Positions 1 through 887 of a DNA stretch of 887 nt are shown here, one piece after another. The DNA comes from Escherichia coli (GTDB lineage: Bacteria > Pseudomonadota > Gammaproteobacteria > Enterobacterales > Enterobacteriaceae). The notes under the pieces were generated by a model. It searched no databases, had not been told where the DNA came from, and was given only the letters and a program-made list of their open reading frames with translations. The first letter of the stretch is position 1, and each line of letters opens with the position of its first letter. The position numbers and the translations under genes were made by a program. The stretch is from NCBI RefSeq assembly GCF_003334305.1, contig NZ_QOWS01000067.1. One strand, given 5' to 3'.

Positions 1-69
1 CCCCTGCAGCGGGTCATAATAGCGGTGGCGGTTGTAATACAGGCCGGACTCCTCATCATACTGCTGCCC
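1..69 (-). other. N-terminal part of the RHS repeat-associated core domain (precedes the PxxxxDPxGL core/toxin boundary, which is off-window)
   Basis: Translation of nt 69..1 on the minus strand is [23 protein letters not shown]. The [20 protein letters not shown] pattern is the conserved opening of the Rhs core-associated domain. The domain is truncated by the window edge. Confidence 0.7.
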
Positions 70-887
70 CGGCAGCCGGATAAGCTGCTGCAGCTGATGC
101 GGGTTCTCTTCATTCAGCAGGTTGCCCCATTCATCATATTCTGCGCACCACGCTGTTGCCCCTTCCGTGCTGATGAGCGCCAGCGGCAGGCCGCGATGGT
201 CGCAGTGGTACAGGTGGATTTTTCGCGCCGGCGTGTACACCGGGTCCATCTGGTTTTGCATCTGCTCCACGGTCAGGCCGCACGATGCCAGCCAGCGGCG
301 GCTTTCCTCACTCACCCGGTCAGCCAGGATTTCACTTTCCAGCCGGTCGAGCATCTGCACCAGCACCGGCGGGAACACCACACTGCCACCGTCTTCGCCG
401 CCGGACTGCTGAAGCGCATCCGCCAGGCTGCGGCGCTGCGTTCTGGCCAGTTCACCGGTGGCAGTTTCAACTCTGATGAGTGGTGTGAAGCTCCCCGGCT
501 GATAAATCGTCTGGATGCGGCTCCTGTCGTTCTGTATCGTGGTCAGCCGGTCGCCGTCCCAGCCGTACCAGGTCACTTGCGGTTTCCGTGACAGCGACAT
601 CCAGCCCGTCAGGTCCCGTTCACGCCGCCATACCCGTTTTGCCACCCTGCGGCCCAGCGGGTCGTAAAGATAGCGACTTTCGACCAGCGGCTCTTCATAT
701 TGTGTCCGCGTGTAGTGCACCAGCCGGTGCTGACTGTCGTAATGGTACCGGTGAGTCCGCTCATCATCCGTGCGGATAACCCCTTCCGGGATGAGGTCGG
801 TTTTCTCTGTCAGCCTGCCGTGACGGTCATACCGGTAAAGATAGTGCGCGTCACGGGCGATACGGTTATCCGGCCACATGCTGAGGG
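1..887 (-). CDS. Rhs family YD-repeat core protein, internal fragment (C-terminal part of the conserved core; partial at both ends)
   Basis: Seen in sequence: the minus-strand frame with codons at + coordinates 3k+1..3k+3 is open for all 295 codons (first full codon 883-885, last 1-3). Hand translation, N->C: [295 protein letters not shown]. Established knowledge: it contains YD-repeat consensus motifs (YxYDxxGRL-like) and the [12 protein letters not shown] signature that opens the RHS repeat-associated core domain. From memory it closely resembles the E. coli RhsA/B/C-type core, but I cannot assign a paralogue or species, so no gene symbol is given. No start or stop codon of the gene lies in the window. 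Confidence 0.93.
544..843 (-). other. Block of four YD-repeat motifs within the Rhs core (protein-level repeats)
   Basis: Seen in the translation: [11 protein letters not shown] (aa 15-25, nt 811-843), [10 protein letters not shown] (aa 47-56, nt 718-747), [12 protein letters not shown] (aa 72-83, nt 637-672), WYGWDGDRL (aa 106-114, nt 544-570). Spacing between motifs is about 25-34 residues, as expected for RHS/YD beta-hairpin repeats. A further degenerate copy, [14 protein letters not shown], lies at nt 175-216. Confidence 0.8.

Follow-up and report, generated by a model that had tools for sequence, protein, structure and literature searches.

The locus examined here raises the question of whether an isolated stretch of 887 nucleotides, carrying the inner part of an Rhs gene, stems from a single place in the genome of its Escherichia coli source or stands for several copies that were merged during assembly. 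The window, i.e., the whole stretch of DNA that was analysed, is the entire 887-base contig QOWS01000067.1 of the draft assembly GCA_003334305.1 and not a slice of a longer sequence. On the minus strand, frame 2 is free of stop codons across all 887 bases and yields 295 codons (window 1-885), a partial Rhs core coding sequence that is open at both ends. Its product is on record as RCQ02479.1 / WP_133301614.1 under the name “RHS repeat protein, partial [Escherichia coli].” In a profile search, the translation matched the NCBIfam model NF041261 (RHS_core) at profile positions 935-1229 of 1,261 (E = 2.3e-188, 628.6 bits; the curated cut-off of this model, 2000 bits, applies to whole proteins and is out of reach for any fragment of 295 residues). 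The plus strand holds an open frame of 188 codons (25-591), which was considered as a gene and rejected because it merely mirrors the Rhs frame, codon for codon, on the opposite strand. The presence of a single stop codon in plus frame 0 is explained by the codon usage of the Rhs frame, in which TTA, CTA or TCA occurs only once in 295 codons.

Several domain models and solved structures position the fragment within the architecture of Rhs proteins. Residues 1-143 (window 457-885, minus strand) correspond to the YD-repeat part of the Rhs shell: the YD_repeat_2x model TIGR01643 was matched with an E-value of 1.9e-7, matches to the Pfam family RHS_repeat were weak (0.06-0.1), and residues 3-143 align with the YD-repeat shells of solved Rhs proteins, e.g., Tse5 (8cp6, E = 4e-25) and the Salmonella bongori Rhs core (8qjd). 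The Pfam “RHS protein” domain PF03527 was identified at residues 223-259 (window 109-219, minus strand; E = 4.7e-16), followed by the RHS repeat-associated core domain TIGR03696, of which the first 42 of 76 model positions lie inside the window (residues 250-294, window 4-138, minus strand). Residues 219-294 align with the plug region at the C-terminus of solved Rhs structures (7q97, 8uxt, 8h8a). The structures aligned to the shell and plug parts are type VI Rhs effectors, including Tse5, 7q97 and Tse15. Judged by these matches, the window spans the final YD repeats of the shell and the beginning of the C-terminal plug, i.e., of the RHS-associated core domain. The DPIGL motif, which marks the junction of core and tip, is located outside the window, about nine codons past position 1, and is present in the window-containing genes of strains A7 and K-12; beyond the window, the full-length A7 genes run on as ...PLQGRYITQDPIGLKGGWN... 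In the Rhs protein encoded at the rhsF site of A7, which has 1,394 residues, the window represents residues 921-1215 (gene positions 2759-3645). The A7 genes that contain the window are annotated as “RHS element core protein” or “rhs element protein RhsB.” A comparison of base composition in A7 and K-12 gave a G+C content of 0.62 for the cores, 0.31-0.41 for the tips and 0.53-0.54 for the flanks; the window, at 0.605-0.635, thus has the G+C content of Rhs cores. On the grounds of its sequence, the window is assigned to the E. coli RhsA-B-C-F core family.

The initial annotation had described the window as a probable multi-copy core sequence, a description for which complete genomes provide direct evidence. 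When 5,426 complete E. coli genomes were searched by megablast, the window matched in 3,889 of them, at 20,057 places in total (median 5 per matched genome, range 1 to 15); these counts include diverged copies of about 77% identity and therefore overstate the number of near-identical ones. Records with 99.8-99.9% identity are numerous and hundreds reach at least 99%, and A7, a strain from orangutan faeces (NZ_CP028767.1), is the sole record with a 100% match among the 5,426 genomes. In this genome the window occurs twice without a mismatch, at 211770-212656 and at 4666097-4666983. The two identical copies reside at the rhsF site between rpmE and yiiX and at the rhsA site between yibF and yibA, where the gene is annotated as rhsB. 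The rhsC copy of A7 is 99.66% identical, with three synonymous differences, and a ybfO-like orphan shows 26 differences (97.07%). A yibJ-like orphan matches only in part (96.1% over 385 bases). More distant copies were found at the rhsD site (78.4%) and the rhsE/H site (74.7%), both with blastn only, and in two copies on a type VI island (76-78%). Of the six megablast places in A7, the remaining one was identified as the vgrG-linked Rhs gene of this island (77%). The rhsB site had been considered for this place and was rejected, as it is empty of Rhs and holds hicAB; the rhsD and rhsE/H sites were rejected as well, as their copies surface with blastn only. For the Rhs gene between cusS and nfrB in A7, DNA similarity to the window was sought and none was found. 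Downstream of the cores, small genes were identified at the rhsF site (dsORF-f3), the rhsA site (yhhH) and the rhsC site (ybfB), and none of these three sites adjoins a vgrG gene. In K-12 MG1655, the copies most similar to the window are rhsB (99.1%), rhsA (98.1%), the orphan ybfO (97.2%) and rhsC (97.0%), followed by a partial match to the orphan yibJ (96.1% over 385 bases) and by rhsD and rhsE at about 77%.

It had further been suggested that the window could belong to any paralogue. This is borne out by A7, in which an exact run of 3,521 bases, with the window inside it, is common to the rhsF-site and rhsA-site cores; short-read polishing of a long-read assembly could have inflated this figure. 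As two loci are identical across the whole window, it is not assignable to one paralogue. Exact runs are also long in other comparisons, with 1,969 bases shared by A7 rhsF and rhsC and 1,811 bases shared by K-12 rhsA and rhsB, and the A7 cores are 99.2-99.8% identical among themselves. The few differences are unevenly distributed. All three differences of A7 rhsC lie between 625 and 676 (at 625, 631, and 676), and a difference-dense patch was identified at 415-484, where seven of the eight K-12 rhsB differences and 5-10 differences of the other K-12 copies and orphans are located. The window allele in this patch is common to all three full-length A7 cores.

The ends of the contig coincide with sites at which the paralogues part. 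The base beyond position 1 is a C in the rhsF-site and rhsA-site copies of A7 and an A in rhsC and the ybfO-like orphan; the base beyond position 887 is an A in the full-length A7 cores and a G in the ybfO-like orphan. An alignment of the four long copies from A7 has 33 variable columns out of 1,002 (~3.3%), which gives a chance of about 0.001 that both ends would adjoin variable columns. Homology to the core begins at gene position 2695 in the ybfO-like orphan and at gene position 3261 in the yibJ-like orphan, and the upstream sequence proper to the ybfO-like orphan starts about 64 bases beyond position 887. A de Bruijn branch scan, with k ranging from 21 to 127, was carried out on a graph built from the A7 Rhs loci only. 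Immediately before position 1 of the window (tip-side fork, gene positions 3645/3646), a branch was present at every k in this range. Exactly after position 887 (orphan-side fork, gene positions 2758/2759), a branch was present only at k of up to 79, a limit which is explained by the run of just 79 exact bases (809-887) that the orphan shares with the full-length cores. Past both forks the paths never rejoin, because they run into different toxin tips beyond position 1 and into upstream sequence proper to the orphan beyond position 887. This graph does not represent the window as one simple unitig, as interior branches exist (e.g., after 257, 414, and 624 at k = 77). All of these are either rejoining bubbles or caused by a run of 144 bases shared with the yibJ-like orphan. 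Consequently, an explanation by collapse requires that bubbles were flattened and that reads spanned the shared 144-base run.

Independent assemblies show breaks at the same places. A metagenome contig assembled with SPAdes (L041) ends on the same base as window position 1. For three toxin tips, fragments were predicted for neighbouring contigs that start k = 55, 77, 99 or 127 bases before the tip fork. All ten predicted fragments were found (10/10), each on 41-954 contigs; among the remaining fragment lengths given for these clusters, most occur on 2-30 contigs and a few on more, e.g., 201 aa on 524. The 295-residue protein of the window in its exact form has been recorded from one contig only, in two samples. 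Fragments of 295 residues with the same bounds, representing the alleles of K-12 rhsB, K-12 rhsC and the A7 orphan, were each found in other E. coli drafts, on contigs whose length is again exactly 887 bases, and four control fragments shifted by five codons were absent in this exact-protein look-up. The 90%-identity cluster of the window product comprises 8,002 members, many of them labelled “partial” and encoded on contigs between 518 and 887 bases long. A contig with these bounds thus arises recurrently from the graph, namely as the segment between the fork at which the orphan enters and the fork at which the tips diverge. Scans with shorter probes were also performed. A haplotype-specific 81-mer (window 410-490) gave zero matches throughout GTDB, and a conserved 55-mer retrieved from GTDB four tiny E. 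coli-like contigs in assemblies of species other than E. coli and nothing else. The metagenome scan with the 81-mer retrieved 34 contigs, none of them 887 bases long, which were used for mapping contig ends.

Taken together, the window is very probably a repeat contig of conserved, G+C-rich Rhs core delimited by two forks of a short-read assembly graph. We infer that the source assembly collapsed about four copies, on the assumption that the source carries a set of Rhs genes like that of A7. In such a set, four copies would run through the stretch: two identical cores, rhsC with its three synonymous differences, and the ybfO-like orphan with 26. Internal differences would give rise to rejoining bubbles that the assembler flattens. 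At position 1, the paths would part for good into different toxin tips, and at position 887, the upstream sequence of the orphan would enter the path of the cores. Short inserts would resolve neither fork across 887 bases and the contig would stop at both. Past the DPIGL motif, each copy would be expected to carry its own toxin tip and then an immunity gene. Precedent exists for breaks and errors of this kind: in 454 assemblies of E. coli K-12 derivatives, of 62 common contig breaks, 5 were caused by rhs elements, and an rhs assembly error gave rise to one false polymorphism (PMC3045373). The earlier suggestion of an assembly collapse hence finds strong, if indirect, support in the isolated contig, its fork-bounded ends, the recurring bounds of 887 bases and the tip fragments offset by k.

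A contig of this length could also have arisen from a cause other than a repeat, such as low coverage, contamination by another E. coli or a fragment that passed a size filter, with the sequence being single-copy in its genome. The lowest megablast count among the matched complete E. coli genomes is indeed one place, and tiny E. coli Rhs contigs are known as low-coverage contaminants, e.g., one with a coverage of 0.79 in a Terrisporobacter assembly (L015). However, such causes do not place both ends exactly at paralogue-variant sites, and the same bounds recur with other alleles while the shifted controls are absent. In addition, the product is listed under E. coli at NCBI, and the contig number, 67, fits the tail of a normal draft if contigs are ordered by length, as we infer. 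A non-repeat origin is accordingly regarded as very improbable. The initial annotation had also raised the possibility of a chimeric join, in which the contig would be a paralogue consensus, or a junction, that exists at no single locus of the source genome. Collapsed contigs do report the majority base at variable sites, of which an A7-like genome would offer up to 26. Yet the full 887-base haplotype is present without a mismatch at two loci of an independently assembled, closed genome, many further records are 99.8-99.9% identical to it, and no switch between known paralogue haplotypes is required to account for it. As nothing points to a join, there is hardly any likelihood of a chimera.

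The suggestion that such cores act as substrates for duplications and inversions was upheld only in part. It agrees with the literature: in Salmonella, a shared stretch of 522 bp with 95% identity mediates recombination between main and orphan rhs copies (PMC3967940), and a recA-dependent unequal crossover between rhsA and rhsB duplicated glyS under selection, the origin of the name Rhs (Lin et al., 1984, as cited in PMC2935791). It also agrees with a contrast between core and flanks at the rhsC locus. Here, no difference separates A7 from K-12 in ybfA and the intergenic flanks (100% identity), and few do so in the tip (99.8%) or in ybfB and the orphan (99.5-99.7%), whereas the core of 3.65 kb is only 96.69% identical, with 121 differences. 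The rhsC core of A7 is, on the other hand, 99.2-99.4% identical to the other A7 cores. Thus, in A7 and K-12, cores are more alike within one genome than at the same locus between genomes. The simplest reading of this pattern is that the A7 rhsC core was likely replaced in place by gene conversion from a paralogue. Inversions, however, do not fit the arrangement of the copies. The near-identical copies are all located on the same strand of the record in both K-12 and A7, and since they are direct repeats, crossovers would give duplications or deletions, and inversions are not expected.

The long identities would render the copies substrates for RecA-dependent exchange, with three outcomes: gene conversion that keeps the cores of one genome alike, swaps in which main and orphan copies trade tips, and, where direct repeats exchange, duplication or deletion. 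Alternatively, the identity of the copies might result from recent duplication or horizontal gain of whole elements, in which case the cores would be repeats and not active recombination substrates. According to PMC2935791, no natural chromosomal rearrangement through rhs had been reported, and frequent gain and loss of rhs genes is argued in the same work. Furthermore, only 2% of the structural variants in mutation-accumulation lines arose via non-IS repeats, such as rhs elements (PMC5289635). Against recent gain, the surroundings of the rhsC core are 99.5-100% identical between A7 and K-12 and the core alone is 3.3% different, and its closeness to the other A7 cores is hard to explain unless the core was replaced in place. 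Recombination in the laboratory is, moreover, documented (PMC2935791, PMC3967940). Recent duplication or gain of whole elements is therefore considered unlikely as the source of the identity, and in-place exchange among the cores is the preferred reading.

A farther-reaching version of this reading can be considered. The rhsF and rhsA sites of A7 are about 382 kb apart and, by synteny with K-12, probably flank the replication origin on opposite sides. The rhsA site bears an RhsB-type tip and the rhsB site is without Rhs. It is conceivable, though rather improbable, that the source strain, like A7, keeps two to three cores identical over kilobases at loci separated by hundreds of kilobases via frequent and possibly selected gene conversion. 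If so, the cores would be interchangeable cassettes that could receive the tip of any locus or orphan, one such swap would have placed the RhsB-type tip at the rhsA site of A7, where the rhsB site is empty, and the inter-locus concerted evolution of Rhs cores would be measurable per strain. Even then, this reading adds little beyond the work of Hill's group and Jackson et al. (2009).

Both the biology of Rhs cores and the effect of repeats on contig assembly are already well described. In biological terms, the result restates known facts, as Rhs cores are known to occur in several copies, to be rich in G+C and homogenised within genomes, and to carry variable toxin tips; its sole importance lies in quality control. 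The contig is unfit for locus placement, SNP calling or gene counting, and short-read variant calls inside the window may be mixtures of paralogues. With the forks being fixed, Rhs repeat contigs could be recognised automatically by their 887-base inter-fork segment, and toxin tips in draft E. coli genomes could be counted from the tip contigs, which begin k bases ahead of gene position 3646.

Compared with known systems, the window resembles the E. coli RhsA-B-C-F elements (NF041261; K-12 rhsA, rhsB and rhsC, and rhsF at rpmE-yiiX) in its nucleotide identity of 97-100%, its high G+C content and its position directly upstream of the DPIGL core/tip junction. Unlike whole genes of this type, it comprises only 295 of about 1,400 residues and is without tip, immunity gene or N-terminus. 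As a contig, it is comparable to the repeat-collapsed products of de Bruijn assemblers, such as those of IS elements, rRNA operons and tufA/tufB, or of rhs itself (PMC3045373): it is short, stand-alone and fork-bounded, several copies exist in closed genomes, and the neighbouring contigs start k bases before the fork. It differs from typical contigs of this class in bundling copies that are 0-3% different and in ending at the start of an orphan and the start of the toxin tips, and not at the ends of an element. Finally, the window covers the homology between full-length cores and the orphans downstream of them, as in the recombination between main and orphan rhs genes (PMC3967940; PMC2935791). 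The evidence here consists of static footprints only, namely the contrast between core and flanks and the RhsB-type tip at the rhsA site of A7.

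At the rhsC locus, the core of the closed E. coli genome A7 diverges from that of K-12 by 3.3% (L010 9249-12899 against L004 2584-6234), while the tip and the orphan, the genes ybfA, ybfB and ybfC and the flanking intergenic sequence are 99.5-100% identical between the two genomes. Similarly, all 70 differences that separate the gene at the A7 rhsA site from K-12 rhsB are confined to the core, and the tip is free of them. Within the window, K-12 rhsB is identical over positions 1-414, and seven of its eight differences are concentrated in the 70 bases of positions 415-484. Such a mosaic is typical of short conversion tracts.

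At the A7 rhsA site, between yibF and yibA (L007 8340-13877), an RhsB-type tip is present together with its yhhH gene, which is directly followed by yibA; in K-12, yibA follows rhsA. The A7 rhsB site, between nikR and yhhJ (L008 31531-33880), contains no Rhs at all and carries a hicAB toxin-antitoxin pair in its place. Therefore, names assigned by PGAP, such as “rhsB” or “rhsC,” reflect the tip and not the locus. At the A7 rhsF site, three damaged genes in series were found to adjoin the Rhs element (L001 9623-11459), namely yiiX, an IS1 transposase and, immediately downstream of the Rhs tip, dsORF-f3, each of them frameshifted.

Beyond its three near-identical cores, A7 harbors four Rhs genes with 74-78% identity to the window: one at the rhsD site, one at the rhsE/H site, where it adjoins vgrG, and two in a type VI secretion island, one of which is frameshifted. 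A further frameshifted, vgrG-linked Rhs gene between cusS and nfrB showed no DNA similarity to the window. The diverged A7 loci examined were L055 14820-27639, L014 18593-25482, L054 17499-24425 and L012 17522-21305.

On the plus strand, window positions 25-591 hold a 188-codon ORF antisense to the Rhs frame, and frame 0 of this strand is interrupted by a single stop in 295 codons. This ORF was rejected as a gene, as it is a shadow frame for which codon usage in the Rhs gene accounts.

Among GTDB species representatives, a conserved 55-mer of the window was matched only in non-E. coli genomes (L015-L018): a 463-base contig (coverage 0.79) of a Terrisporobacter petrolearius isolate, a Lachnospiraceae MAG, and two contigs of a “Flavobacterium psychrophilum” MAG. 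Counted from the fork at which Rhs cores part into different tips, the starts of L017 and L018 lie 77 and 79 bases into the window, respectively. All four contigs appear to be either contaminating E. coli sequence or repeat contigs that were mis-binned.

The haplotype-specific 81-mer (window 410-490) occurs twice in L051, a human-gut metagenome contig of 6,514 bases, at positions 1140-1220 and 3011-3091, i.e., 1,871 bases apart. This pair represents a main core followed in tandem by its orphan, both carrying the same allele. In contrast to the L051 orphan, the A7 orphan differs from the core in the haplotype patch.
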